Assembly (NCBI GenBank): GCA_016789445.1
Contig: JAEUQT010000002.1
Coordinates: 8,052 to 72,051 of the forward strand
Reading direction: 5' to 3'
DNA length: 64,000 bases
Source: a bacterium
GTDB taxonomy: Bacteria; Patescibacteriota; Minisyncoccia; Phycocordibacterales; UBA2100
How positions within the stretch are numbered: the stretch's first letter is position 1; the number at the start of each line of letters is the position of its first letter. The position numbers were made by a program, and so were the translations under genes. Positions 2,956 through 49,687 of this stretch are shown here, piece by piece. Under the pieces are notes generated by a model. The model searched no databases. It saw only the letters and a list, made by a program, of their open reading frames with translations, and was not told the origin of the DNA.

Positions 2956-3378
2956 ATGGCAAAAGAAATCACTAAAATCATCAAATTGCAGATCCAGGCG
3001 GGTGCCGCTACACCGGCTCCTCCTGTCGGTACTGCACTCGGTCCAGCCGGCGTCAACATCGGCGAGTTCGTCAACCAGTTTAACGCGCAGACCCGTCCTA
3101 TGATGGGCAACGTCGTCCCGGTCGTCCTCACTGTCTACAAGGACCGTTCGTTCACGTTCATCGTGAAGAAGCCGCCGGCATCCCGTCTCGTTCTCAAAAA
3201 GCTCGGCATCGAAAAGGGTTCAACCAAAGCTCAGAACAAGGTCGCGAAGCTCACCAAGCAGCAGCTCACGGAGATCGCTGAGGAGAAGATGGAAGACCTC
3301 AATGCGTACGATGTAGAGCACGCAAAGAAGATCATCGCCGGTACCGCCCGCTCCATGGGTATCGACGCGGAACTCTAA
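2956..3378 (+). CDS. rplK: 50S ribosomal protein L11
   Basis: Highly conserved L11 N-terminus (K..I.KL.I.AG.A.P.PP.G.ALG..G.NI..F...FN). Confidence 0.9.
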
Positions 3379-3395
3379 GAGTTCTGACTCGGAAA

Positions 3396-3426
3396 GAAAA
3401 AGGCTCCGTAAGGAGCCTTTTTCTAT
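3396..3426 (+). terminator. Rho-independent terminator (AAAAAGGCTCC-gtaa-GGAGCCTTTTTCT)
   Basis: Perfect stem plus a T-tract directly after rplK. It terminates where rplA would normally follow. Confidence 0.6.
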
Positions 3427-3436
3427 TGGGGAAGCC

Positions 3437-5113
3437 GTGTACAATTCGCGCATGCCACAGGTACGCGACGCTCTTGCTACGGCCCTCGAGAAGGAGGGAG
3501 TTCAGGATCCTCAGTTCACTCTCGAACACACGGCGGATTTCGCGCACGGTGATTATGCGTCGAGCGTTGCGCTCGCATATGCGAAGCAGTTGAATACGAA
3601 TCCGCGTTCTCTCGCAGAAAAGCTCGTCGCTTCGATGGGGAATATCGAAGGTGTTTCGAAGATTGAGATCGCGGGTCCTGGGTTCATCAACTTCACCCTC
3701 GAGGCGAAATTTCTCTTTGAGATGCTGAAGATTGGTCTCGCGCACGGTGACGCATGGGGGCGCAGCATGCAGCTGCAGGGAAAGAAGGTGATGGTGGAAT
3801 ATACCGATCCGAATCCTTTTAAGGCATTCCATATCGGGCACCTCATGAGCAATACGATCGGCGAATCACTCGCGCGATTGCAGGAAGCTGCTGGTGCCGA
3901 AGTCATCCGTGCGAACTATCAGGGCGATCTCGGCGTGCATGTCGCCTGTGCCATCTGGGGAATCAAGAAGCTCGGCATCCATCCGACAAACGCCGATGAA
4001 TTCGGTCGCGCCTATGCGGAAGGCGCGACCGCCTACAAAGAGAATGCAGAAGCAAAAACGGAGATCGATGCGATCAATAAGAAACTCTACGATCAATCTG
4101 ATGCTGAATTGAATGAACTGTACGATACGGGACGCACAGAATCTCTTGAGGCATTTGAACGGATTTACGCAATTCTTGGTACGAAGTTTGATCACTATTT
4201 CTTTGAAAGCGAGACAGGGCCGATCGGAAAGAAGATCGTCGAGAGCAATCCGGCAGTGTTCCCAGAATCCGAGGGCGCACGTGTTTTCAAAGGCGAAGAG
4301 CATGGGCTCCATACGCGAGTATTTCTCAATTCCCAAGGGCTTCCGACGTACGAGGCGAAAGAGCTTGGTCTGGAGAAACTGAAGACCGAACTATATCCGG
4401 ATGCGGAGACGCTCTACATCGTGACGGCAAATGAAGTCGTTGATTTCTTCCGCGTGGTGAAAAAGGCGATGGAAATCGTCCATCCGGAAATCGCGGCGAA
4501 GCTTACGCACGTCTCGCACGGCATGATGAAGCTTCCTGAAGGGAAGATGTCTTCTCGCACCGGTAACGTCGTCACGGGAGAATCGCTCATCAAGGACCTC
4601 GCAGAAGTCGCGAAAGAGCGTGCAGCGGAGAGTCGTGCCGACGACAAAGAGAAGCTTGCGCAAGATATCGCCGTTGCGGCAATCAAATTCCAGATTCTCA
4701 AAGGCAGTACCGGCAAGGACATTATTTTCGAACGCGAACGCGCACTTTCCGTCGAAGGCGATTCAGGACCATATCTCCAGTACACGCACGCACGAACGCA
4801 TGCGATCGTCGAGAAGGCGAAGGATTCTGGCGTAGAAGCCGCGTTTGATCCTGCTGCATCTGTGCCAGAGCTTGCGCGCCTCATCTTCCGTTTCTATGAC
4901 GTCGTAAAGCGCTCTCGCGCTGAGCTCGAGCCGCACCATGTGACGAACTACCTCATCGCCGTCGCGGCCGCATTCAATAGCTGGTACGCACAGGAACAGA
5001 TCCTCGATGGCACTCCTGCCGCAGCGCACAAAGTCGCACTTACCGATATAACCCGCCTCACCCTCAAGAACGGCCTCTGGCTTCTCGGTATCCCGACGCC
5101 GGAGAAGGTCTAG
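3437..5113 (+). CDS. argS: Arginine--tRNA ligase
   Basis: Class I HIGH motif (FHIGHLMS) and a KMSKS-like motif (KMSSRTG), with ArgRS-type domain order. 558 aa. Confidence 0.85.
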   Translation: MYNSRMPQVRDALATALEKEGVQDPQFTLEHTADFAHGDYASSVALAYAKQLNTNPRSLAEKLVASMGNIEGVSKIEIAGPGFINFTLEAKFLFEMLKIGLAHGDAWGRSMQLQGKKVMVEYTDPNPFKAFHIGHLMSNTIGESLARLQEAAGAEVIRANYQGDLGVHVACAIWGIKKLGIHPTNADEFGRAYAEGATAYKENAEAKTEIDAINKKLYDQSDAELNELYDTGRTESLEAFERIYAILGTKFDHYFFESETGPIGKKIVESNPAVFPESEGARVFKGEEHGLHTRVFLNSQGLPTYEAKELGLEKLKTELYPDAETLYIVTANEVVDFFRVVKKAMEIVHPEIAAKLTHVSHGMMKLPEGKMSSRTGNVVTGESLIKDLAEVAKERAAESRADDKEKLAQDIAVAAIKFQILKGSTGKDIIFERERALSVEGDSGPYLQYTHARTHAIVEKAKDSGVEAAFDPAASVPELARLIFRFYDVVKRSRAELEPHHVTNYLIAVAAAFNSWYAQEQILDGTPAAAHKVALTDITRLTLKNGLWLLGIPTPEKV

Positions 5114-5116
5114 GCT

Positions 5117-5356
5117 ATGGCGGATCTTTCGGAAATCGCACAGAACTTTAAACATGGTACCTACCGCCATTTCAAGGGTGGAATATATAAGACGATCTGC
5201 ATCGGGCGAAGCAGCGAAGAGCGAGATCAAGAATTTGTCGTATATCAGTCACTTGATCGTGGACATATTTGGATAAGGCCGTTACCGATGTTTATTGAAG
5301 AGGTCGACCGCGACGGATATAAAGGGCCGCGTTTTTCATACGTTGCCGAATCATAG
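5117..5356 (+). CDS. DUF1653-domain protein
   Basis: 79-aa ORF with the GTYRHFKGG.Y......EE.....VVYQSL.....W.RP..MF motif typical of DUF1653. Confidence 0.5.
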   Translation: MADLSEIAQNFKHGTYRHFKGGIYKTICIGRSSEERDQEFVVYQSLDRGHIWIRPLPMFIEEVDRDGYKGPRFSYVAES

Positions 5357-5374
5357 TTTTGCTACACTGCCTGC

Positions 5375-6964
5375 ATGACGCAGGAAGATGCACTCTCCAT
5401 ACTCAAGCTTGGCGTGAATGTCTTCCTCACCGGTGAGCCGGGGGCGGGGAAGACGCATACGATCAACCAATACATCCACTGGCTGCGCGAGCGGGGAGTG
5501 GAGCCGGCAGTGACGGCTTCGACCGGTATTGCGGCGACGCATGTGGGAGGCATGACGATCCATAGCTGGAGCGGTATCGGCGTGAAGAAGAGATTGACCG
5601 ACTGGGATATCGAGAACATCCAAGCTCGGGAGAAGACCGCGAAGCGTATCTATGACGCAAAGATTCTCATCATCGACGAGATCTCCATGCTTGATGCGGA
5701 CACGCTTGAGAGCGTGGATGCGGTGCTGCGTGCGTTGCGGCAGCCGGTCATGCAGGAGAGTCGGCCGTTCGGCGGTCTCCAAGTCATCTTCGTGGGGGAC
5801 TTCTTCCAGCTGCCGCCGGTTTCCCGTGGGGAGAACGTACGCTTCGCCTTTGATTCAGATGCATGGAAAGCCGCGAATCCGGTCGTGTGCTACCTCTCCG
5901 AGCAGCACCGTCAGGAGGATGCAGCATTCCTGGATCTCTTGAATGCCGTGCGTCGCGGAGAGGTGGAAGACGTGCACTATGAATCACTTCGCTCCCGCAT
6001 GAAGCGAGTGAGCGAGAAAAAGAAAGTGACCCGACTGCATACGCATAATGCTGAGGCGGATCGCATCAATGACGAATCGCTCGCCGAGGTAGATGGAAAG
6101 ACCCATGTCTTCCATATGACGACGAAAGGTTCACGTACGCTCGTCGACGCACTGAAGCAGAATGCACTCTCGCCGGAGACGTTGGTACTTAAAGAAGGAG
6201 CGACGGTGATGTTCACGCGCAACAATTTCGATATGGGGTATGTGAACGGGACGCTCGGTGAAGTCGTGGGCTTCGCGAACAGTGGGTATCCGATCGTGAA
6301 GACTAAGAGGGGGGATCGTATCGAGGCGGTGCCGGGAGAGTGGAGTATCACCGACGGCTCGAAAATACTGGCGCAGATAAAACAGGTGCCGCTCCGTTTG
6401 GCGTGGGCGATCACGGTGCATAAATCGCAGGGGATGTCGCTGGATGCGGCGATCATCGATCTATCACAGGCGTTCGAGTTCGGGCAGGGATATGTCGCGC
6501 TCTCGCGCGTGCGTTCGCTCGACGGGCTTTTTCTTGAAGGATTTAACGAGCGAGCCTTGCAGCTGCACCCGCAGATCGTGCGCCAGGACGAACTCTTCCG
6601 TGCAAAATCCGACGCCGCACAGCGACGCATTTCGACCATACCTGATGAGGAGCGGGGAGTGTTGGAGAAGAACTTCCTACGTGCCATCGGCGCACGCGAG
6701 CCGGAACCCATAAAACCCAAGAAAGCTCTCGAAAAGGGAAAGCTCGAAAAAATACGTGAGAAGTTCCCGAATGCCGGTCGTCCGTGGACGAAAGATGATG
6801 ATGAGCGCCTGACGGAGCTCTTTGAAGCGGACACGCCCATGAAAACCATCGCCAAGGAATTCGGCCGCAAAGCGAGTGCTATTACGGCACGGCTCGTGAA
6901 GCTTGAGCTTATCGAAGACCCGTACTGGTCGAACAAAAACAAGACACCTCGCGCTGAAGAGTAG
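5375..6964 (+). CDS. PIF1/RecD-family ATP-dependent DNA helicase with a C-terminal HTH tail
   Basis: Walker A GEPGAGKT, helicase motifs (LIIDEISM, VGDFFQLPPV) and a RecD/PIF1-like C-terminal region (HKSQG). The last ~70 aa resemble a sigma-70 region-4-like HTH. Start is supported by an extended -10 (TGcTACACT) 6 nt upstream. Confidence 0.75.
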   Translation: MTQEDALSILKLGVNVFLTGEPGAGKTHTINQYIHWLRERGVEPAVTASTGIAATHVGGMTIHSWSGIGVKKRLTDWDIENIQAREKTAKRIYDAKILIIDEISMLDADTLESVDAVLRALRQPVMQESRPFGGLQVIFVGDFFQLPPVSRGENVRFAFDSDAWKAANPVVCYLSEQHRQEDAAFLDLLNAVRRGEVEDVHYESLRSRMKRVSEKKKVTRLHTHNAEADRINDESLAEVDGKTHVFHMTTKGSRTLVDALKQNALSPETLVLKEGATVMFTRNNFDMGYVNGTLGEVVGFANSGYPIVKTKRGDRIEAVPGEWSITDGSKILAQIKQVPLRLAWAITVHKSQGMSLDAAIIDLSQAFEFGQGYVALSRVRSLDGLFLEGFNERALQLHPQIVRQDELFRAKSDAAQRRISTIPDEERGVLEKNFLRAIGAREPEPIKPKKALEKGKLEKIREKFPNAGRPWTKDDDERLTELFEADTPMKTIAKEFGRKASAITARLVKLELIEDPYWSNKNKTPRAEE

Positions 6965-6984
6965 CCTTTGCTACGATAGCTTCC

Positions 6985-9900
6985 ATGGCTGAAAATCGGG
7001 GAAAATCAGAGACTGCCAAGCGGGAAGAAGAGGTTCTGGCCTTCTGGAAGGAGAACAAGACCTTCGAGCGCTCCTTGGATAAGAAGGCCCCGAAGGGGGA
7101 ATTCGTCTTCTACGACGGCCCGCCGTTTGCAACCGGATTGCCGCACCATGGCTCGCTTCTTTCCTCGATAATCAAGGACGTCATCCCGCGATACAAGACC
7201 ATGCGTGGCTACAAGGTCCGCCGCCGCTGGGGGTGGGACACGCACGGTCTCCCTATCGAATCGCTTGTCGAGAAAGAGCTCGGTCTCAAGACCAAGAAGG
7301 AGATCTTGGAGATCGGCATAGCGAAATTCAACGACGCGGCACGCTCGATGGTATTGAAGTACGTCCATGATTGGCAGCGATATATCGACCGCGTCGGCCG
7401 CTGGGTGGACTATGAGAACTCCTACAAGACGATGGACAATACGTACATCGGTAGCGTCTGGTGGGCACTCAAGGAGCTCGACACAAAGGGACTTCTCTAC
7501 GAAGGGAATAAGGTCCTCATGTACTGCACACATTGCGAGACGCCGCTTGCGAAAGCGGAGATCGCGATGGACAACACCTACAAGGATATAACCGAAGAGG
7601 CGATTACGGTGAAGTTCGAATTGAAAGAGGAATCAAAGACCTATTTCCTCGCATGGACCACGACGCCATGGACGTTGCCGGGTAATGTCGCGCTCGCGGT
7701 AGGGGCAGAGATCGAGTATGTGAAAGCGAAAGCGGGGGGTAGTGTCTACATACTTGCGAAAGAGCGCGCCGCATCGGTTCTTAAAGATGTCACCCACGAG
7801 ATCGTGGGGACACTGAAGGGAAGCGAGATCGTCGGAAAAGCATACAAGCCGGTTTTTGATGTGGCGTCATTGAAGACAGAAAAGTCACACAAAGTGCAGG
7901 CGGCGGATTTCGTCACCACTGAAGACGGTACGGGCATCGTGCATATCGCGCCGATGTACGGCGAGGACGACAACCAGCTCGGGCAGCGCGAGAAGCTGCC
8001 GATGGTACAGCTCCTTAATCCGAATGGTACGTACAACGATCTGGCACCATCGTTCCTGCATGGACTCTACCTGCGTGACGCGAACAAAGACATCAAGAAA
8101 GATCTCGAATCGCGCGGCCTCTTGTTTGCGCGCGCCAACCATACGCATTCCTATCCGCACTGCTGGCGATGCGGCACACCGCTCATCTATAACGCGGTTT
8201 CTTCCTGGTTCATCAATATCCAGAAGATAAAAAGCCGACTCATCGAGGCGAACCAGGAGATCAACTGGGTTCCGGAGCACTTGAAGAACGGTCGCTTCGG
8301 GAAGATTCTGGAAACCGCACCGGATTGGACGATCTCACGCAACCGCTTCTGGGCATCACCGCTTCCGATCTGGAAATCGAAAGAGGGGAAGGTGATGGTT
8401 ATAGGCTCCCTGGGTGAATTGAAAGAAAAGGCGAAGAAGAGCGGCAACACGTACTTTGTCATGCGCCATGGCGAAGCGGAATCCAATGTCACGAATACGC
8501 TGAGCTCGAAGAAGGATGCGCCTGTCCATCTCACCGAGAAGGGGAAGGAGGATGTGCGTGAGTCTGCAAAGAATCTTGGAAAGAAAATCGATCTCATCGT
8601 CGCGTCACCGTTCGTGCGTACGCGTGAATCGGCTGAGATCGCCGCTGAGGGGCTCGGGCTCAAGAAGAGCGACATCGTCTTCGATGATCGTCTTGGCGAA
8701 TACGATCTTGGGTCTCAAGACGGCATCTCGCTCGAAGAGTGGCATCTCGAATATCCGGCAAATCTAGAGCGTTTCGAGAAAGGTCCGGAAGGTGGCGAGA
8801 ATGACTCTCAGGTGCGTCGACGCATGGGCGCTGTCCTCTGGGAACTGGAAGAGAAGTATCGAGGAAAGAACATCCTCATCGTCTCGCATGGCACGCCGCT
8901 CTGGCTCTTAAAGGGTGCTGCTAAGGGCTTCACGAAAGAAGAGATCGTCGCGACCTACAAGACCGACTATCCGAGTAAGGGAAAGATTACCGAACTCCCG
9001 TTCTCTCCCATTCCGGTGAATGCTGATTTCGAACTCGACCTCCATCGTCCGTACACGGATTCCATTGTGCTCCTCGACGAGGCCGGCACTGAATATCAGC
9101 GCATTCCGGAAGTCATCGACTGCTGGGTGGAATCGGGCTCTATGCCATTCGCCGAATATCACTATCCGTTCGAGAATAAGGCGGAATTCGAGAAGCGAAG
9201 CCCGGGCGATTTCATTGCGGAATACATCGCACAGACGCGCACGTGGTTCTACTACCTGCATGCGATGAGTATCGCGCTCTTTGACCATGTCGCGTTCAAG
9301 AACGTGGTCACGACCGGGACCATCGTCGCGGCCGACGGGGAGAAGATCTCGAAATCGAAGAAGAACTACACCGATCCCTTGGAGCTTATCGACACCTATG
9401 GCGCGGACGCGATGCGCCTCTACCTTATGGGCTCTCCCGTCATGCAGGCGGAGGATCTGCGCTTCCGCGATGAGGATGTGCGTGATGCACATAACCGCAT
9501 CATCGGTATCCTCTGGAACAGCTTCAAATTCTTCGATCTCTATCAGAAGGAGTACGACGGCAAGGCAGAGGGGCGAAAGAGCGAGCATGTGCTCGATCGC
9601 TGGATCTTCGCGCTTCTCGACGAAGTGACTGAAGAGGTGACGGCGGCTATGGAGAGGTATGACACTCCGCGCGCGGCACGAGCGATCCGTGGCTTCGTCG
9701 ACGAATACTCGACGTGGTACGTGCGCCGTTCACGCGAGCGCGTGAAAAGCGAATGGCATGAACGTCAGTTCGCGCTTGCGACGCAACGGGAAGTCTTGCT
9801 CACATTCTCGAAACTCATCGCACCCATCATGCCCTTTTTGGCGGATGCGATCTGGCGCAACATCGAGGATGGCGGCAGCGTGCATCTCGAAGAGTGGCCG

Positions 9901-10425
9901 CAGGTGAAGCGTGGGTTCTTCGCGCGACTCTTCGCTAAGCCGGATGCCATCCTTGCGGAAATGAAGGATGTGCGTTCAATCGTCACCAAGGCGCTTGAGG
10001 CGCGCGACAAGGCGGGCATCAAGGTGCGTCAGCCACTCAATCTCCTGGAGATCGGTTCGAATATCTCAAAAGAACTGCGCGACATCATCCGTGACGAAGT
10101 AAATGTGAAGCAGGTTATGCCTGCGAAAGATCTTGCGGCAGGGGAGGTGCGATTGGATACGGTCATCACACCGGAACTGCAGCGCGAAGGTGAAGTGCGC
10201 GAATTGCTGCGCGCGGTACAGGGGCTCCGCAAGGAAGGAGGACTCAATCCGGGGGATGCTGCAACGATATTGGTCTCGGCTACTGATGAAGCATGCATGC
10301 TCATTGAATCTGCAAAGGACGAACTGGATCGCATCGCGAGTGTGAAGGGAGTCGTATTCACCGACAATGTCGAAGGTGTGAGCGTGAAGCTTGGTAGCGG
10401 GAGCGCCAACATCCGCCTCGGCTAG
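6985..10425 (+). CDS. ileS: Isoleucine--tRNA ligase (type 2), with an inserted histidine-phosphatase (PGAM-like) domain
   Basis: HIGH-region PHHGSLL, WTISRNRFWASPLPIW, LDLHRPY, KMSKS as KISKSKKN, and a C-terminal anticodon-binding region; 1146 aa. Nucleotides ~8395-9040 encode a complete RHGE...SHG histidine-phosphatase fold inserted between the PIPIW and DLHRP segments. Confidence 0.9.
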   Translation: MAENRGKSETAKREEEVLAFWKENKTFERSLDKKAPKGEFVFYDGPPFATGLPHHGSLLSSIIKDVIPRYKTMRGYKVRRRWGWDTHGLPIESLVEKELGLKTKKEILEIGIAKFNDAARSMVLKYVHDWQRYIDRVGRWVDYENSYKTMDNTYIGSVWWALKELDTKGLLYEGNKVLMYCTHCETPLAKAEIAMDNTYKDITEEAITVKFELKEESKTYFLAWTTTPWTLPGNVALAVGAEIEYVKAKAGGSVYILAKERAASVLKDVTHEIVGTLKGSEIVGKAYKPVFDVASLKTEKSHKVQAADFVTTEDGTGIVHIAPMYGEDDNQLGQREKLPMVQLLNPNGTYNDLAPSFLHGLYLRDANKDIKKDLESRGLLFARANHTHSYPHCWRCGTPLIYNAVSSWFINIQKIKSRLIEANQEINWVPEHLKNGRFGKILETAPDWTISRNRFWASPLPIWKSKEGKVMVIGSLGELKEKAKKSGNTYFVMRHGEAESNVTNTLSSKKDAPVHLTEKGKEDVRESAKNLGKKIDLIVASPFVRTRESAEIAAEGLGLKKSDIVFDDRLGEYDLGSQDGISLEEWHLEYPANLERFEKGPEGGENDSQVRRRMGAVLWELEEKYRGKNILIVSHGTPLWLLKGAAKGFTKEEIVATYKTDYPSKGKITELPFSPIPVNADFELDLHRPYTDSIVLLDEAGTEYQRIPEVIDCWVESGSMPFAEYHYPFENKAEFEKRSPGDFIAEYIAQTRTWFYYLHAMSIALFDHVAFKNVVTTGTIVAADGEKISKSKKNYTDPLELIDTYGADAMRLYLMGSPVMQAEDLRFRDEDVRDAHNRIIGILWNSFKFFDLYQKEYDGKAEGRKSEHVLDRWIFALLDEVTEEVTAAMERYDTPRAARAIRGFVDEYSTWYVRRSRERVKSEWHERQFALATQREVLLTFSKLIAPIMPFLADAIWRNIEDGGSVHLEEWPQVKRGFFARLFAKPDAILAEMKDVRSIVTKALEARDKAGIKVRQPLNLLEIGSNISKELRDIIRDEVNVKQVMPAKDLAAGEVRLDTVITPELQREGEVRELLRAVQGLRKEGGLNPGDAATILVSATDEACMLIESAKDELDRIASVKGVVFTDNVEGVSVKLGSGSANIRLG

Positions 10426-10427
10426 GT

Positions 10428-11003
10428 ATGTATCAGAAATATCAGACCGATACGCTCGTCCTGCGTAGCTACGAGCGCGGCGAGGCGGATCGTATCTACG
10501 CGCTCTTTACCCGGGAATTCGGATTGGTGTGGGCACGTGCGACGGCGGTGCGACGCGAGAATTCACGGCAGCGCTATGCACTGCAGAGCGGATCGCGCTC
10601 TATGGTCTCCTTGGTGCGTGGACACAAAGGATGGCGTGTCGCAGGAGCCACTGCCATCGAACAGCTTGATATGCGGAAGGTGAGCGGCGTGCATGCGTTT
10701 ACGCGCATCAGCGCACTTCTAGAGCGCCTCGGTGGCGGGGAGGAACCGAATTCGTATCTCTTCGACACACTGGTTCACGCGTACGCATCTCTGATGCGAG
10801 AGGGGGCGGAGTTGCATCCGGTTATTGAATTGGTCACGGTGGCGCGCATGCTCTTCGCGCTCGGCTACCTTTCGCAGGATGCGTTTGGTACGGCGCTTTT
10901 CGCGGAGACGGCGTACACCGAAGCGGGTTTGCGGGAAGTGCAGGGAGTCCGCTCCCAAGTGCTTGCCTCTGTAAACAAATCGCTGTCCGAGACCCAGCTC
11001 TAA
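10428..11003 (+). CDS. recO: DNA repair protein RecO (short form)
   Basis: N-terminal OB-fold pattern (T..VLRS...GE.DRI..LFT...G......A.R..S.....LQ) typical of RecO. 191 aa, shorter than typical RecO. Confidence 0.55.
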   Translation: MYQKYQTDTLVLRSYERGEADRIYALFTREFGLVWARATAVRRENSRQRYALQSGSRSMVSLVRGHKGWRVAGATAIEQLDMRKVSGVHAFTRISALLERLGGGEEPNSYLFDTLVHAYASLMREGAELHPVIELVTVARMLFALGYLSQDAFGTALFAETAYTEAGLREVQGVRSQVLASVNKSLSETQL

Positions 11004-11019
11004 GTGGTATCATTCCCGA

Positions 11020-12996
11020 ATGCCTCCGCGGGAGCCTTCTCCAAGGGATAGGGAAGAACAAGAGCGTATCAAACGGCTGCGTGAAGCGATGTATTCACGC
11101 AAGCTCGAACCCCTGATCAAGGAGAAGCCGCGCCGTGAACTCGAAGTGACCCCGCCGCCGGTCGGTGAAGAATTCATCCGTGAGGAGCCGCTTCTCCAGC
11201 GCAGCACGGTCGCACCGAAAAGCATCCGCTTCACCCGTGTCCTTATCCGATGGGCGATCATGGCCTCTGTTGCGTTCTTTGTCGGCGCGATCGCTTTTTT
11301 TGCCTACTACTTCTTGCTCGGCGGGGGTTCGACGCCGGTTGATCCGGGCAATATCGATATCTCGGTCTCTGGTCCATTGCAGGTATCGAGCGGTTCTCCG
11401 ACTGAACTACAGGTCGCAGTCGTGAACCGTAATCGCGGCGCACTTGAACTTGCTGATCTCGTTATCAAGTATCCAGACGGCACCCGTTCTCCGGTTGATC
11501 TCAGCACGAATCTCAAGGATCAACGCATCTCACTCGGCAACATCGAACCGGGCGGTCGTCGACAAGGAACGGTCTCGGCGGTCTTTTCCGGTGTCGAAGG
11601 TGATCGCGGCACGATCGAGATCGATCTCGAATACCGTCTTGTCGATTCGAGTTCGATCTTCGTCGCTTCGACCAAGTATCAGATCGTCTTCGCATCCTCG
11701 CCGATCTCGCTTTCCATCGAGGGGAACAGCGAGACCGTCTCGGGACAGCCGATCGAATTCAAGGCGACGCTTGCATCGAATGCGGAATCCGTCGTGAAGG
11801 ATGTGCTTCTCAATGTGAATACGCCGTTCGGATTCACGATGTCGTATGCCGATCCTGCGGCGCAGAGGGTCGCGGGTGGCCAGCTCTGGACGCTCGGAGA
11901 CCTTTCTCCAGGGCAGAAGAAGACGGTGACTCTGCGCGGCGTCATAAGCGGAGAAAGTGGCGATGAGCGCGTCTTCCGTTTCAAAGCAGGTACGCGACCG
12001 GACACAGAGCAGAACGTGCTCACGACGACGCTCGCGGATTATGCGCATCACGTGATAGTCTCGCGTCCGTTCCTCGGACTCGCGGTGACGCTCAACAAGG
12101 ATATGGTGGGCGGAAGCGCGGTGGTTTCTCCGGGGGAAACTGTGAACGTCTCGGTCGCCTACGAGAACAATCTTTCAACTGAAGTGACGGATGCAGTCAT
12201 CGTCGCGCGACTCGGCGGAGTGGAGATCGACGGCGCGACGGTGCAATCGACCGATGGCTTCTATCGTTCGACGGATAAGGTTGTGCTCTGGGATAAGACG
12301 ACGACGCGCGGCACGCTCGGGCGCATCGCATCCGGCGCCAAGGGTACGCTCAACTTCTCATTCCAGATGCCGACCAACGACGTTCTGTCGGAGATCCGCA
12401 ATCCTTCGCTCTCGATCAGCGTGCATGCGGCAGGGAAGCGTGTCTCGGAAAACGGTGTTCCTGAGACGCTTCAGGCGACGGCGGTGCAGGACATCAAGCT
12501 TGCGAGCGATCTCCAGCTCATCGCACAGGGGCTCTACTACTCGAATCCGTTCGGCTCTTCGGGACCGATGCCGCCGAAGGCGAATTCCGAAACCACGTAT
12601 GCCTTGGTATTCAGTCTCACCAACACCACGAACAAGATCAAAGATGGCGTCATAACTGCGGTATTGCCGCCGTACGTGCGTTGGGTGGGTATCTACAGTC
12701 CGTCGAGCGAAGACATCAAATTCAATCAGAACGACAGCACGATGACGTGGCGCGTGGGGGACATCGAAGCGGGTACCGGCGTGAATGGATCGCTCCCGAA
12801 GCAGGCCGCGATCGCGATCGGCTTTACGCCCTCGACGTCGCAGATCGGCCAGCAGCCGCTCCTCATTCGCGACGTCACTCTCAAGGGTAAGGACGAGGCG
12901 ACGGGGGCGAATATCACGCGCGTCGCGGACGATGTCACCACCAATATCAGCGGAGACCCGGGCTTTACCGCAGCCAACGCGAACGTGGTCCGGTAA
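11020..12996 (+). CDS. Membrane-anchored surface protein with a disordered cytoplasmic N-terminus, one TM helix and about four tandem beta-sandwich (CARDB/DUF11-like) domains
   Basis: 658-aa ORF with a charged N-terminus, a TM helix (IMASVAFFVGAIAFFAYYFLL), then repeated ~110-aa beta-rich segments with a recurring G..V.V.N.G / L.Y pattern. Start is supported by an extended -10 TGgTATCAT 6 nt upstream. Confidence 0.6.
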   Translation: MPPREPSPRDREEQERIKRLREAMYSRKLEPLIKEKPRRELEVTPPPVGEEFIREEPLLQRSTVAPKSIRFTRVLIRWAIMASVAFFVGAIAFFAYYFLLGGGSTPVDPGNIDISVSGPLQVSSGSPTELQVAVVNRNRGALELADLVIKYPDGTRSPVDLSTNLKDQRISLGNIEPGGRRQGTVSAVFSGVEGDRGTIEIDLEYRLVDSSSIFVASTKYQIVFASSPISLSIEGNSETVSGQPIEFKATLASNAESVVKDVLLNVNTPFGFTMSYADPAAQRVAGGQLWTLGDLSPGQKKTVTLRGVISGESGDERVFRFKAGTRPDTEQNVLTTTLADYAHHVIVSRPFLGLAVTLNKDMVGGSAVVSPGETVNVSVAYENNLSTEVTDAVIVARLGGVEIDGATVQSTDGFYRSTDKVVLWDKTTTRGTLGRIASGAKGTLNFSFQMPTNDVLSEIRNPSLSISVHAAGKRVSENGVPETLQATAVQDIKLASDLQLIAQGLYYSNPFGSSGPMPPKANSETTYALVFSLTNTTNKIKDGVITAVLPPYVRWVGIYSPSSEDIKFNQNDSTMTWRVGDIEAGTGVNGSLPKQAAIAIGFTPSTSQIGQQPLLIRDVTLKGKDEATGANITRVADDVTTNISGDPGFTAANANVVR

Positions 12997-33592: not shown

Positions 33593-33944
33593 CCGCCTTA
33601 CATATGGGACTTAAGCAGATGCAAAAGAAGTGGCGTGGATAGCCAGATTTTTTCTGTCCTTCCGATTGCCGCTTCCGAGCGGCTTTTTTTGTACCCGTGT
33701 GTAGCTCGTTGACAACTGAAGAACGACATCAAATTCAGCGTAGAGCCGCAAGGCTTTGCGTTGAGAAAGAAAACGAAAGAATCAAATGTTCTTATTTCTG
33801 GTTACAAGTCTCCAGAAATAAGATCAGGAACCTTCTTCCGAAAGGAAGGAGGCTTGTAGGACACCAAAACCTTCGTATCCTCTGCACTAGACATGCATGA
33901 TGCGAAGTAAAAGAACACGCGGTTCCCAGAATTCTCATAACGAG

Positions 33945-36895
<2,951 letters not shown>

Positions 36896-37170
36896 CGTTA
36901 GGGAATTGTGGGTATCCGTGTTCGCACGGTGTCCAACGCAAGTCTTTCGTTTTTGATGGTGTCGTTCTTCAGTTGCCAAAGGGCATGATCTTTTAGATAT
37001 TCGTGGATTTCAGAGAGGAAAGTCGCATGACTTCTCCTCGGCGGGGGTGAGGGATAGGCTCACACATTGGACATCTGTCCACTTCGGTCGGGCTAAGTTC
37101 CTCTATGAAGGGCAATGCTCTCTCCCCGCTCTTCTCTGAAATCCATGAATACTTAGACTATTGAAGATTC

Positions 37171-37281
37171 TGTGTTGGTGGTTTGGCGAAGGGGGTACAC
37201 CCGTTCTCATTCCGAACACGGCAGTTAAGCCCTTCTGCGCCGATGGTAGTCGAAAGGCGAGAGTAGGTCGCCGCCAACACA
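37171..37281 (+). rRNA. rrf: 5S ribosomal RNA
   Basis: CCCGTTCTCATTCCGAACACGGCAGTTAAGCCC...GCCGATGGTAGT, with terminal helix TGTGTTGGTGG/CCGCCAACACA. Confidence 0.85.
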
Positions 37282-47306: not shown

Positions 47307-47554
47307 GCCTCTACTTGTCTCACTCTACTGATCTAGAGCTTCGTGAGATCGAGGATCCCACGAGGCCTTCTTTGGCGTGGGGTAGACCTTTGAAAACTGA
47401 AGAGAGAAACAAACGATCTCCGACCCGCAAGGGTTCGGGGAACACACACATAAGCAAGAACACAAGAAAGTAAAAGAAAGCATTGGAACAAAAGATGTAC
47501 ATTCTTTTGTTCCGTCCAACCTAATCAAGATAGGAGTAGAAATACTCCGTCTTT

Positions 47555-49015
47555 AACTGAGAGTTTGATCCTAGCTCAGGGTGAATGCTGGCGACGTGGA
47601 TAGGGCATGCAAGTCAAGGGGACCGCAAGGTAACCGGCAGACGAGATAGTAACGCGTAGGAACGTACCCAGAAGTCGGGCACAGCTCGCCGAAAGGCGGG
47701 GTAATTCCCGATGGTCTCGCAAGAGTAAAGATTTATCGCTTCTGGAGCGGCCTGCGTAATATCAGCTAGTTGGTGAGGTAATGGCTCACCAAGGCTATGA
47801 CGTTTAGGGGAGCTGAGAGGCTGACCCCCATCGATGGAATTGAGATACGGTCCATACTCCTACGGGAGGCTGCAGTCGAGAATATTCGACAATGGGCGAA
47901 AGCCTGATCGAGCGACGTCGCGTGGTGGATGAAGTCCTTCGGGACGTAAACATCTTTTATGAGGGAGGAAGTTATTGACGTTACCTCATGAATAAGGGGC
48001 TCCAAACTCTGTGCCAGCAGGAGCGGTAATACAGAGGCCCCAAGCATTACCCGGAATCATTGGGCGTAAAGGGTGCGTAGGTGGTCATATTAGTCGAATG
48101 TTAAATCCCGGGGCTTAACTCCGGAATCGCGTTCGAAACGGTACGACTCGAGAGCGTGAGAGGTGAATGGAACTCATGGTGTAGGGGTGAAATCCGTTGA
48201 TATCATGGGGAACACCGAAAGCGAAAGCAATTCACTGGCACGTTTCTGACACTCAAGCACGAAAGCGTGGGTAGCGAACGGGATTAGATACCCCGGTAGT
48301 CCACGCCCTAAACGATGATAACTGGATTTAGGGAGTATCGACCCTCTCTGAGTCGAAGCTAACGCGTTAAGTTATCCGCCTGGGTAGTACGGTCGCAAGA
48401 CTAAAACTCAAAGGAATAGACGGGGGCTTGCACAAGTGGTGGAGCGTGTGGCTTAATTCGTCGCTAAGCGAAGAACCTTACCAAGGTTAGAAATCCTACT
48501 GCACGCCTTCCGAAAGGAAGGAAGCCTTCGAGGGTGTAGGACAGGTGATGCATGGCTGTCGTCAGTTCGTGGTTTGAATCGTTCCCTTCAGTGGGGTAAC
48601 GAACGCAACCCTCGTTGCCTGTTATATTTGTCAGGCGAGACTGCCCCCTCACGGGGGAGGAAGGTGGGGATGACGCCAAGTCAGCATGTCCCTCTGATAT
48701 CTTGGGCTGCACACGCGCTACAATGGCTACTACAGCGGGGCGCGACGGGGTAACCCTGAGCAAATCCTTCAAAAGTAGCCTCAGTTCGGATTGAGGTCTG
48801 CAACCCGACCTCATGAAGCTGGAATCACTAGTAATCGCGGGTCAGCCACACCGCGGTGAATACGTTCTCAAGCCTTGTACTCACCGCCCGTCAAGTCAGG
48901 GGAGTTGGGAGTGCCCGAAGCGCATCCTTGCGATGCTTCAAGGCAAACTCAATGACAAAGACTAAGTCGTAACAAGGCACGGGTAGCGGAAGCTGCTCGT
49001 GGATTCATTCTAAAC
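47555..49015 (+). rRNA. rrs: 16S ribosomal RNA (unlinked from 23S-5S), with a non-canonical 3-prime tail
   Basis: GAGTTTGATCCTAGCTCAG start, CTCCTACGGGAGGCTGCAG, GTGCCAGCAGGAGCGGTAATAC, GGATTAGATACCCCGGTAGTCC, AAACTCAAAGGAATAGACGGGGG and GTCGTAACAAGG. The 3-prime end reads GGATTCATTCTAAACAACCTTCTCTT instead of GGATCACCTCCTTA, so the exact 3-prime boundary is uncertain. Confidence 0.85.
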
Positions 49016-49602: not shown

Positions 49603-49674
49603 GCGCGTTTAGCTCAGTGGTAGAGCATCCCTCTGATAAGGGGAAGGCCGTAGGTTCAATCCCTACAACGCGCA
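49603..49674 (+). tRNA. tRNA-Ile (anticodon GAU)
   Basis: Manual cloverleaf: acceptor GCGCGTT/AACGCGC, D-arm GCTCAGTGGTAGAGC, anticodon stem TCCCT/GGGGA with loop CTGATAA (anticodon GAT), variable AGGCC, T-arm GTAGGTTCAATCCCTAC, discriminator A. A TGcTACTAT extended -10 at ~49489-49498 may drive it. Confidence 0.85.
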
Positions 49675-49687
49675 CTAAAGACAGAAA

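Follow-up and report, generated by a model that had tools for sequence, protein, structure and literature searches.

The window analysed here is a stretch of 64,000 nucleotides from an ultra-small member of the Patescibacteria, in which ileS stands between a PIF1-like helicase gene and a recO-like gene (Table 1). The ileS product scored 833.9 bits against TIGR00392 (cutoff 621.4), in two stretches flanking an insert, and therefore belongs to this isoleucyl-tRNA synthetase (IleRS) equivalog. Its Pfam domains are tRNA-synt_1, His_Phos_1, Anticodon_1 (PF08264) and DUF5915 (PF19302), and the CP1 editing domain is present with the motifs WTTTPWTLPGN (aa 224-234) and GTGIVH (aa 315-320). The full-length AF2 model has a pLDDT of 86 and a pTM of 0.76, and the top structures recovered with Foldseek were IleRS2 of P. 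megaterium (8C9D/8C8V) and yeast IleRS (8WND). The window thus encodes a full-length type-2 IleRS, predicted from its motifs to be competent for editing. Membership of the mupirocin-resistance enzymes MupA/MupB (NF000257/NF000258) was rejected, at 698 and 734 bits against an exception cutoff of 1900 bits; what the window IleRS shares with them is the type-2 lineage only.

Table 1. Features at and around ileS in the window; positions count from the first nucleotide of the window and residues from the first residue of the ileS product.
Feature	Position	Strand	Description and basis
argS (ArgRS, 558 aa)	3437..5113	+	tblastn with the L090 ArgRS; ORF; synteny
PIF1-like helicase gene	5375..6964	+	Pfam PIF1, E 3e-36; in the slot of the standalone phosphatase of relatives
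ileS ORF	6985..10425	+	1146 aa, uninterrupted; type-2 IleRS with nested histidine phosphatase domain
IleRS, N-terminal part	6985..8433	+	aa 1-483: first Rossmann half, CP1 editing domain, WTISRNRFWASPLPIW motif, then first strand/helix of the connective-peptide hairpin
Class I 'HIGH' signature, variant HHGS	7144..7155	+	aa 54-57; fourth His replaced by Ser
Nested His_Phos_1 (branch 1 histidine phosphatase)	8434..9036	+	~aa 484-684, ~200 residues
RHG motif	8464..8472	+	R494, H495 (predicted phospho-accepting nucleophile), G496
R545, second phosphate-binding arginine	8617..8619	+	SPxxR motif; invariant among aligned homologues
E572, predicted general acid/base	8698..8700	+	RLxExxxG motif; 98% conserved
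H635, second catalytic histidine	8887..8889	+	SHG motif; invariant among aligned homologues
IleRS, C-terminal part	9037..10422	+	aa 685-1146: DLHRPYTD return strand, second Rossmann half, KISKS, anticodon-binding domain, type-2 C-terminal domain (DUF5915)
KMSKS signature, as KISKS	9343-9357	+	aa 787-791
recO-like gene	10428..11003	+	Pfam RecO_N; synteny
tRNA-Ile(GAT) gene	49603-49675		within the window

The HIGH signature of the window IleRS is unusual. HxGS is found in ~105/120 close homologues, and HYGH is mostly retained in more distant IleRSs that bear the insert. A connection between the insert and the HHGS signature was therefore rejected, HxGS being confined to the sub-clade of the window. 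IleRS2 is known to tolerate altered HIGH motifs (GXHH) (PMC10485003).

The initial annotation had placed a complete histidine phosphatase domain inside IleRS, and the profile searches bear this out. In the full protein PF00300 matches at aa 491-653 with E 6.4e-32 and 111.2 bits (gathering cutoff 21.7), and the search with this profile proposed for the insert interval alone returned E 2.8e-33 (115.7 bits). The interval first given, 8395-9040, lies in frame (aa 471-685) in the single ORF, with RHGEAESN at aa 494-501, SPFVRTRESAE at aa 541-551 and IVSHGTPLW at aa 632-640. The limits of the insert were taken from an alignment with insert-less type-2 IleRS, as had been suggested, in which aa 483 of the query joins aa 685 directly. 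The insertion itself therefore stands, at a size of roughly 200 residues instead of the ~215 originally counted, since ~14 of these are native connector. It sits in a hairpin on the surface of the connective-peptide region, probably 'CP3', between the WxISRNRFW...PxW motif and the DLHRP...EVxDCWxESG segment.

All parts of the branch-1 catalytic core are found in the insert, namely the RHG histidine, the second arginine, the acidic donor and the second histidine. R494 and H495 are invariant in alignments of 65 and 118 homologues and are retained in every inserted and standalone relative; the position of E572 is E or D in the standalone relatives. Taken as a whole, the R-H-R-E-H set is (near-)invariant in the 118 homologues and in all standalone relatives and those with insertions at sites 1 to 4. 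The insert region of the AF2 model has a pLDDT of 91-98 and shows the alpha/beta/alpha phosphoglycerate-mutase-like fold; Foldseek matched it with a probability of 1.00 and a TMt of ~0.75 to PspA (4IJ6), GpgP (4QIH), PhoE (1H2E) and CobC. Strong conservation extends to the residues at either junction (K484, S486, G487, N488 and Y490; P677, N679 and E683), which could reflect a fixed orientation with mechanistic significance and would then tell against mere tethering. With a net charge of -4 and a pI of 5.7 the window insert is acidic, whereas the standalone relatives lean towards the basic side (median pI 8.75). The acidity of the insert does not suggest RNA binding, and charge as a hint of RNA binding is ambiguous across the two groups.

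PF00300 was present in 120/120 of the closest database homologues. At wider scope, the insert was found in 102 of 150 representatives clustered at 50% identity and at 63 of 80 species-level genome loci, so that the same insertion does recur in related genomes, where the initial annotation had proposed to look for it. All named carriers are Patescibacteria. An identical protein is encoded on 5 independently assembled contigs (P0121), and GC content runs across the insert at 0.52-0.57 with no break. The insert is under purifying selection as strong as that on the synthetase itself (dN/dS 0.072 for the insert, 0.064 for the IleRS body). The single ORF, the domain matches on both sides, the homologues and the purifying selection uphold the claim that IleRS is intact around the insert, with no frameshift or fusion artefact. 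The nested architecture is of ancient origin and occurs widely among Patescibacteria (Paceibacteria/Parcubacteria); it is neither rare nor peculiar to the window genome, with hundreds of public sequences. These carriers are annotated as 'isoleucyl-tRNA synthetase' or 'class I tRNA ligase family protein', and some even as 'histidine phosphatase family protein'. Short proteins combining PF00133 and PF00300 (P0017, P0019, P0020, P0023, P0036) were considered as a split-gene form and rejected as truncated or frameshifted ileS calls, and a LeuRS-editing Pfam label on P0026 was set aside as a weak cross-match to a fragmentary IleRS.

The label 'phosphoglycerate-mutase-like' given initially holds at the level of the superfamily and fails for a mutase. 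All dPGM models scored far below cutoff on the insert (TIGR01258, 22.6 against 81.7; NF038349, 70 against 225; other dPGM models, 18-37 against >300). A dPGM identity is further opposed by the length of ~200 aa, the mutase type having ~250 aa with a C-terminal tail, and by the phosphatase-type fold neighbours. CobC (TIGR03162; 64.9 bits, cutoff 162.9), PspA (NF045917; 52.4 bits, cutoff 350) and SixA (TIGR00249; 34.8 bits, cutoff 74.5, a weak match to the N-terminal half) were rejected likewise, and no specific model among CobC, PspA, SixA, dPGM and GpmB reached its cutoff on the insert. The nearest PDB sequences are PhoE (E 8e-12) and PspA (E 2e-11), and the closest folds and sequences together are PhoE, PspA, GpgP, the riboflavin HFP and CobC, all small-substrate phosphatases. 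Judged by sequence and predicted fold, the domain resembles small-metabolite phosphatases (PhoE, PspA, GpgP, CobC) and not mutases.

The same phosphatase is found in related IleRSs at four different sites, the fourth being in the anticodon-binding domain, and sometimes in two copies per protein. It also occurs as a standalone protein, which aligns with the insert from first to last residue. Standalone homologues picked solely by their similarity to the insert were used for unbiased look-ups of gene neighbourhood, and in 7/8 of these the nearest relatives lay upstream of an insert-less ileS, either directly (P0030, P0035, P0053, P0037, P0046, P0064) or one gene off (P0050). The same phosphatase-ileS adjacency is seen at L060, L061 and L063; the distant standalone homologues P0095 and P0100 showed no adjacency to ileS. 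The phosphatase and ileS are separated by a HIT gene at L061 and by a Fic-domain gene at L086. The gene order at the standalone loci is argS-phosphatase-ileS-recO, with argS immediately 5′ of the phosphatase gene and this in turn 5′ of ileS, and the argS-phosphatase-ileS adjacency is kept across proteins that are merely 30-40% identical. The recO-like gene is the conserved 3′ neighbour of ileS in insert-bearing and insert-less relatives alike, and a PIF1 helicase gene between argS and ileS is found also in L095. One genome (L093) carries both a standalone gene and a nested insert. In a neighbour-joining tree the IleRS-linked clade is set apart from generic His_Phos_1 domains and its members cluster by insertion site; otherwise the tree is star-like and speaks for no particular order of events. 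The clade exists in three forms: standalone upstream of ileS, nested at any of four sites, and both together.

Phosphatases are not the only enzymes nested in these proteins. Some related IleRSs also bear GNAT (P0368, P0379), NUDIX, Ser_hydrolase or P-loop kinase-like domains, the last beside a phosphatase in P0283. The kinase-like domain gave weak matches only, to APS kinase, shikimate kinase and Pnkp1 (4XRP), with E 0.02-0.05, too weak to serve as evidence for a Pnkp-like system. Together with the HIT gene at L061, the co-inserted domains point to small-molecule or nucleotide enzymes.

The reading that we favour, with a probability of roughly 0.55, is that of an autonomous small-substrate phosphatase that was captured from an operon partner and tethered to IleRS. 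For each site the partner gene would have entered ileS in a single copying event; lineages like that of the window, in which the PIF1 helicase gene now takes the slot, would afterwards have lost the standalone gene. The nested domain would be an autonomous, catalytically active phosphomonoesterase, its reaction running through phosphorylated His495, an intermediate then hydrolysed with E572 as acid/base. Its substrate is predicted to be a small phosphorylated molecule, most plausibly of nucleotide type and linked to the aminoacylation cycle, for example AMP. Because the domain appears to work both standalone and at four distant insertion points, coupling to IleRS would consist of obligatory co-expression and co-localisation, and not of a fixed active-site channel. 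That nesting took place four times, in IleRS specifically and not by end-to-end fusion, might reflect a need for proximity to the tRNA or the active site. Recurrent capture may, on the other hand, reflect only the adjacency of the source gene, and hence be no proof of a functional link.

The latter thought leads to a rather unlikely alternative, in which the domain is a functionally unrelated passenger: a housekeeping metabolic phosphatase (e.g. of PhoE, PSP or sugar-phosphate type) captured through adjacency and loop tolerance, the fusion being an economy of expression in a tiny genome with no link to aminoacylation. IleRS does behave as a permissive scaffold, having gained GNAT, NUDIX, Ser_hydrolase and kinase-like enzymes; a physically adjacent source gene would bias capture, the domain appears to work as a free protein no less than at any of four sites, and its nearest relatives are generic metabolite phosphatases. 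However, the conservation of argS-phosphatase-ileS order at 30-40% identity is usually the sign of a functional or regulatory link, every capture was found in IleRS and none in the equally adjacent ArgRS, and some lineages retain two copies in one IleRS.

An unlikely alternative gives the domain a role in repair of tRNA ends, a 'pre-charging clean-up' in which phosphate or pyrophosphate is removed from the 3′-CCA of tRNAIle so that charging can proceed. To our knowledge, no branch-1 histidine phosphatase acts on RNA ends, and the nearest structures are all small-metabolite enzymes. The same domain also turns up at site 4, within the anticodon-binding domain, and unattached to IleRS, which speaks against a required CCA-end geometry; the window insert is acidic, and the kinase-like match in P0283 is below significance. 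Candidate ends would be those pyrophosphorylated at the 3′ end by toxSAS enzymes (e.g. FaRel2, CapRel), or the 3′-phosphate and 2′,3′-cyclic phosphate ends left by tRNA nucleases. Pyrophosphorylation of CCA ends by toxSAS blocks aminoacylation and can be reversed enzymatically (10.1101/2021.04.30.441581, PMC11559606). The tethering of the domain to a tRNA-binding enzyme, in a connective-peptide region that by sequence order flanks the acceptor-end path, is in keeping with this role, as are the conserved junctions and the basic standalone relatives; the pairing of kinase and phosphatase in P0283 recalls, weakly (E 0.05), polynucleotide kinase-phosphatase.

A role as protein phosphatase is very unlikely. 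Here the nested domain would be a built-in antidote, stripping from IleRS or a partner an inhibitory phosphate placed there by a toxin kinase (HipA-, HipT- or Doc-like). Branch-1 histidine phosphatases do include the protein phosphatases SixA, PGAM5 and Sts-1, GltX and TrpS are known targets of inactivating toxin kinases, and a phosphatase acting in cis could sit anywhere on IleRS, which fits the multiple sites. The weak SixA match over the N-terminal half and the Fic-domain gene at L086 would also agree with it. Yet the Fic gene is a single case and no kinase was found nearby; the SixA match misses its cutoff, the closest folds belong to metabolite phosphatases that have a cap region, and no phosphosite is known. 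Taken more broadly, built-in protection of translation, whereby the phosphatase erases a charging-blocking (pyro)phosphate from either the tRNAIle 3′ end or IleRS, is a rather improbable function. Lastly, the chance of an artefact or dead domain (chimeric misassembly, pseudogene or catalytically inert spacer) is negligible: some database entries are truncated or frameshifted on long contigs (e.g. P0017, P0023), but misassembly, frameshift and pseudogene are excluded by recurrence among hundreds of diverged full-length homologues and by purifying selection (dN/dS 0.07), and the uninterrupted ORF, the even composition, the identical protein on 5 contigs and the invariant catalytic residues stand against this reading too.

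Aminoacyl-tRNA synthetases are among the best-studied enzymes, and most descriptions of additional catalytic domains in them concern editing or eukaryotic signalling additions. In the Patescibacteria/CPR, a major bacterial radiation, an intact and strongly conserved phosphatase resides within what is presumably the sole IleRS. It offers what appears to be a clean natural example of a neighbouring gene becoming a nested domain, in which standalone, coexisting, nested and duplicated intermediates are all extant. IleRS emerges besides as a scaffold on which NUDIX, GNAT, hydrolase and kinase-like modules gather. The favoured reading, a captured and tethered small-substrate phosphatase, yields the testable idea of a phosphomonoesterase tied to isoleucine charging in organisms of minimal metabolism. 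Should the substrate be a tRNA end, a phosphoprotein or an adenylate by-product, the synthetase repertoire would gain a new auxiliary function; if protection were its role, the IleRS of Patescibacteria would be a self-repairing charging enzyme with 'pre-charging proofreading' beside the classical editing domain. Even a fusion that serves economy alone would document an unusual way of streamlining a genome. The finding also bears on annotation, since many carriers have at NCBI no fuller name than, e.g., 'class I tRNA ligase family protein'.

The architecture had been called undescribed at the outset, and a search of the literature accessible without subscription agrees, finding no paper on a phosphatase within IleRS; two recent papers on IleRS evolution and structure, one of them PMC10485003, make no mention of it. 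Compared with known IleRS2 (P. megaterium 8C8V/8C9D, Thermus thermophilus 1ILE, yeast 8WND), the window IleRS has the same fold and domain order (Rossmann/HUP core, CP1 editing, KMSKS, anticodon-binding, DUF5915), with a Foldseek E of 1e-77 and ~30% identity. It differs in its HIGH signature, HHGS against HxGH, and in the connective-peptide hairpin, which houses an enzyme domain of ~200 aa; insert-less IleRS2 shows there a stretch of ~8-25 residues that is often a zinc knuckle. A curated precedent for IleRS with an extra unrelated enzyme domain exists in NF040702 (ileS_w_GNAT), which carries an N-acetyltransferase. However, this is a different IleRS clade with a different domain; membership was rejected for the window IleRS, which lacks GNAT and scores 316.8 bits, and its GNAT-bearing relatives score 241-292 (cutoff 1999).

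Among phosphatases, the broad-specificity enzyme PhoE/YhfR of Geobacillus stearothermophilus (1EBB/1H2E) and the PspA-type phosphoserine phosphatase of Hydrogenobacter (4IJ5/4IJ6) share with the insert the compact branch-1 fold of ~200 aa and the R-H-R-E-H set, and are among its best fold matches (TMt 0.74-0.77). Both are free-standing, whereas the window domain is nested, and at ~22-27% identity, with NCBIfam scores of 52 against 350 for PspA and 53 against 277 for phosphoserine phosphatase 1, their specificity is not transferable. The top NCBIfam phosphatase model for the insert, at 92 bits (cutoff 326), is the bifunctional RNase H/acid phosphatase (Rv2228c-type, NF005567), in which a CobC/PhoE-like histidine phosphatase is likewise joined to a nucleic-acid enzyme; there, however, the fusion to RNase H is end to end and bears no relation to a tRNA synthetase. 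Accessory domains of aminoacyl-tRNA synthetases include the CP1 editing domain, nested in the connective peptide of class Ia enzymes, and the eukaryotic GST, WHEP and EMAPII additions. In these too, loops or termini have gained domains, and CP1 is a precedent for nesting in a connective peptide. Known additions edit, bind tRNA, or mediate complexes or signalling. Unlike them, the window module has no known role in aminoacylation; it is bacterial, apparently derived from a neighbouring gene, and a complete predicted phosphomonoesterase.

The ileS gene of the window encodes an isoleucine–tRNA ligase (IleRS; NCBIfam TIGR00392, 833.9 bits against a cutoff of 621.4), with the match divided into two stretches. 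Pfam places a histidine phosphatase domain (His_Phos_1, PF00300) at aa 491-653 (E = 6.4e-32, 111 bits, gathering score 21.7), between two tRNA-synt_1 halves that are followed by Anticodon_1 and DUF5915. The initial annotation had read nt 8395-9040 as an in-frame phosphatase region within the synthetase. This interval corresponds to aa 471-685, gives E = 2.8e-33 in Pfam when searched alone and contains the catalytic peptides quoted there (RHGEAESN, aa 494-501; SPFVRTRESAE, 541-551; IVSHGTPLW, 632-640). The nested phosphatase is real and the observation is confirmed. Its size, however, had been put too high at ~215 residues: the alignment of insert-less type-2 IleRSs (archaea, Rickettsiales, Peregrinibacteria) extends up to aa 483 at most and resumes at aa 685 or beyond, gapless on their own side, and the insert is delimited accordingly in the table. 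No break in GC content was seen across the insert in the window.

Features of the window; aa numbers refer to the IleRS protein
Feature	Position (nt)	Strand	Remarks
argS	3437-5113		
PIF1-like helicase gene	5375-6964		529 aa; between argS and ileS, in the relatives' phosphatase slot
ileS	6985..10425	+	single uninterrupted ORF, 1146 aa
Class I HIGH signature variant HHGS	7144-7155 (aa 54-57)		fourth His replaced by Ser
Nested phosphatase insert	8434-9036 (about aa 484-684)	+	~200 residues, from alignment to insert-less type-2 IleRS
658-aa protein	11020-12996		weak DUF11/CLIPPER-like match; downstream of recO
23S rRNA	33942-36898		
5S rRNA	37174-37279		
16S rRNA	47553-49014		match spans 1462 nt
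tRNA-Ile (GAT)	49603-49675		

Recurrence supports the earlier claim of a domain insertion rather than a misassembly. An identical protein is encoded on five contigs, each from an independent assembly (P0121). PF00300 is also present in every one of the 120 best homologues in the database (57-100% identity, 1115-1198 aa), and many of these lie on contigs 100-800 kb long. When 1.84 billion representatives at 50% identity were searched exhaustively with HMMER, 102 of the best 150 hits had an insert-like domain, the insert-less ones being 950-1080 aa long. Related genomes were also scanned for the same insertion (one genome per GTDB species; at least 593 related stretches, 80 loci kept). An in-frame insert was found in 63 of the 80 kept loci, nearly all labelled Patescibacteria, Paceibacterota, Parcubacteria, Nomura-, Zambryskii-, Wolfebacteria or generic CPR. 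Moreover, comparing the window with a homologue of 91% identity gave a Nei-Gojobori dN/dS of 0.072 in the insert and 0.064 in the remaining IleRS. Given the Pfam match, the recurrence and the dN/dS, an artefact or a dead domain has practically no probability. Five database proteins (P0017, P0019, P0020, P0023, P0036) are short 'PF00133+PF00300' entries on long contigs. These are truncated or frameshifted ileS calls, P0017, for instance, stopping short of the DLHRP motif with an out-of-frame tail, and represent either assembly errors or occasional pseudogenisation. Some short truncated calls are annotated 'histidine phosphatase family protein' or 'PhoE'.

Judged by its motifs, the IleRS body appears functional. 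CP1 has both the Thr-rich editing peptide WTTTPWTLPGN and GTGIVH, and KISKS, an anticodon-binding domain and a type-2 C-terminal domain are also present. The best structural matches of its AlphaFold model (65-sequence alignment, pLDDT 86, pTM 0.76) are P. megaterium IleRS2 and yeast IleRS. The insert is preceded by WTISRNRFWASPLPIW-x7-V(I/V)GS-x2-EL-x4, with (E)LDLHRPYTD…R(I)PEV(I/V)DCWVESGSM downstream. The same hairpin in relatives (for example the IleRSs of P0016, P0031 and L063) carries two Cys-x2-Cys zinc knuckles, which identifies the insert-bearing element as the final one of the connective peptide, ahead of the second Rossmann-fold half; its order in the sequence makes it a probable 'CP3', as PMC11685878 names these elements. 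An HxGS form of the HIGH signature (HHGS, HSGS, HTGS, HQGS) is found in about 105 of the 120 closest homologues, and HYGH is kept in more distant relatives, insert-bearing and insert-less alike. In the representative P0272 the motif is GIHH, which matches the hyper-resistance type that PMC10485003 describes for IleRS2; that study does not discuss HxGS.

Four residues of the insert (R494, H495, R545, H635) are invariant across 118 aligned homologues, and G496, N501, E572 (98%), E605 and R613 are nearly so. Conserved residues also mark the N-side (K484, S486, G487, N488, Y490) and C-side (P677, N679, E683, D685, H687, P689) junctions. AlphaFold models the insert at pLDDT 91-98, and low-confidence residues on both flanks (453-455 and 710-713) suggest that the hairpin and phosphatase may move as a lobe. 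The closest solved proteins by sequence are PhoE/YhfR (1EBB/1H2E, E = 8e-12) and PspA (4IJ5); the closest folds, at a TMt of about 0.75, are PspA, GpgP Rv2419c, PhoE, a riboflavin-pathway histidine phosphatase and CobC. Every curated subfamily model (dPGM, CobC, PspA, SixA, GpmB) scored far below cutoff for the insert. Both sequence and model indicate that it is a compact, phosphatase-type branch-1 histidine phosphatase. The earlier label 'phosphoglycerate-mutase-like' holds at superfamily level but not in the mutase sense, which is ruled out by the dPGM scores and the phosphatase-type nearest folds.

A free counterpart of the insert lies next to ileS in other genomes. In L060, L061 and L063, loci from the genome scan, an insert-less zinc-knuckle IleRS has a His_Phos_1 gene just upstream (189-202 aa, 35-41% identical to the insert), in the order argS–phosphatase–ileS in L063 and argS–phosphatase–HIT–ileS in L061. 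These loci were chosen via ileS; as an unbiased counter-test, standalone proteins were picked only by similarity to the insert and then located. With X as the phosphatase gene, their loci read argS–X–ileS (P0030, verified), X–ileS–recO (P0035), X–Fic–ileS–recO (P0050), smpB←, argS–X–ileS–recO (P0053), X–ileS–…–recO (P0046), argS–X–ileS fragment (P0064; TIGR00392 E = 4e-25), argS–X–ileS with ileS itself insert-bearing (P0037) and argS–X followed by the contig end (P0058). In two more remote homologues (about 32% identity, E ~1e-9) the gene context was unrelated. These neighbourhoods show that the phosphatase is genetically tied to ileS even as a free gene.

The window keeps the frame of its relatives (argS … ileS–recO–DUF11/CLIPPER-like), with the PIF1-like helicase gene in the phosphatase slot. 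L095 shares this arrangement and adds an HTH_17 gene, suggesting that a mobile or accessory segment was inserted. Synteny from ileS through recO and the DUF11/CLIPPER-like gene to a class II aaRS (tRNA-synt_2b + HGTP_anticodon) is kept in L094, L095, L086 and L090. Elsewhere in the window the rRNA genes are unlinked, on one strand and in an unusual order (23S-5S, about 10 kb, 16S-tRNA-Ile), and no large insertion was seen in the 16S rRNA match.

Alignment to the standalone proteins spans their full length, with the insert matching both their N-terminal residues ((K)N-x-Y-(Y/F)-x-(M/L)RHG) and their final strand (…(I/L)-x-(E/K)-L). Because insert-less IleRS is universal, the nested form is derived, and because all pairwise identities in this comparison are only about 30-41%, the capture is old. 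On the simplest reading, the operon partner would have been duplicated into ileS, both copies would have coexisted, and the free copy would then have been lost. The both-copy stage is seen in L093, where a standalone gene (3225-3803) lies beside an insert-bearing ileS (3814-7260) in one genome; the second catalytic Arg of its insert appears shifted or replaced (SSDSLSAR), which may reflect subfunctionalisation. A HIT-family gene in L061 (4204-4626, Pfam E = 2e-8) and a Fic_N+Fic gene in L086 (5807-6934) lie between standalone phosphatase and ileS. Both families have nucleotidylated or phosphorylated substrates, and this placement could be coincidence or a functional hint.

His_Phos_1 domains were also placed on IleRS coordinates in the 150 representatives, combined with sequence reading, and occupy four sites. 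Site 1, that of the window, accounts for the majority. Site 2 occupies the tip of the second zinc knuckle, immediately ahead of (M/F)(K/R)RIPEVLDCWFESG (P0367, P0371, P0312). Site 3 is in the catalytic domain, between SGSMPYA-x2-HYPF and FPADFIAEG-x-DQTRGWF (P0271, P0339, P0358, P0379, P0390, P0371). The helical anticodon-binding domain holds site 4, flanked by …TYANIDGW-x-PT and LD-x-WI (P0263, P0324, P0350, P0358, P0363, P0378, P0390 and also P0054). Several IleRSs carry two phosphatase domains, tandem-like or at two sites, and R-H…R…E…H is kept in all nested copies. A rough NJ tree, otherwise star-like, sets the IleRS-linked domains (both free and nested) apart from generic His_Phos_1, with a tendency to cluster according to insertion site. 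Judged from these sequences, nesting has happened more than once. Moreover, related IleRSs carry GNAT (P0368, P0379), NUDIX in the CP1 region (P0314, P0338), Ser_hydrolase PF06821 at site 3 (P0363) and, also at site 3, a P-loop kinase-like segment (AAA_18/AAA_33; P0283) that weakly resembles APS kinase, shikimate kinase and Pnkp1. By predicted domain content, IleRS of the Patescibacteria type is a hub where foreign enzyme domains are nested, in proteins of 1350-1560 aa.

In the histidine phosphatase superfamily, a His (here H495) attacks the phosphomonoester to form phospho-histidine, the phosphate is bound by Arg/Arg/His (R494, R545, H635) and a Glu (E572) serves as general acid/base in hydrolysis. 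What the analysis shows is a phosphatase module that has its full set of catalytic residues, is under selection and is physically tied to IleRS. A domain that is kept as a free protein and also at four IleRS positions, spread over three structural domains, is unlikely to depend on a precise channel between active sites; co-expression and co-localisation would be the link common to both forms. The nearest relatives, the co-inserted NUDIX, GNAT, hydrolase and kinase-like domains and the HIT neighbour are small-molecule or nucleotide enzymes, which favours a small phosphorylated substrate, plausibly a nucleotide of the aminoacylation cycle such as AMP. We give this proposal as a whole a probability of roughly 55%. 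An unrelated housekeeping phosphatase, captured through gene adjacency and the tolerance of IleRS for insertions, is a minority possibility. A minority possibility of nearly equal weight is that the domain erases phosphate or pyrophosphate from tRNA 3' ends, for example against toxSAS-type CCA pyrophosphorylation (10.1101/2021.04.30.441581; PMC11559606). The window insert is acidic (pI 5.7), which weakly opposes RNA binding, but the free relatives are basic. A protein phosphatase shielding IleRS from toxin kinases is improbable.

A full-text search of open-access literature found no description of a histidine phosphatase in an aaRS, and two recent studies of IleRS structure and evolution mention neither a phosphatase nor Patescibacteria. 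Hundreds of such proteins nevertheless lie in public databases under generic names. The nested phosphatase is ancient, occurs widely within a single radiation and would be easy to test. Among known systems, NF040702 of NCBIfam is a curated IleRS with a foreign enzyme domain (GNAT), from another clade. In the RNase H/acid phosphatase NF005567 a histidine phosphatase is likewise fused to a nucleic-acid enzyme, but end to end, whereas that of the window is nested. Taken singly, the components are an ordinary type-2 IleRS and an ordinary branch-1 histidine phosphatase of the PhoE/PspA type; their combination is not ordinary.
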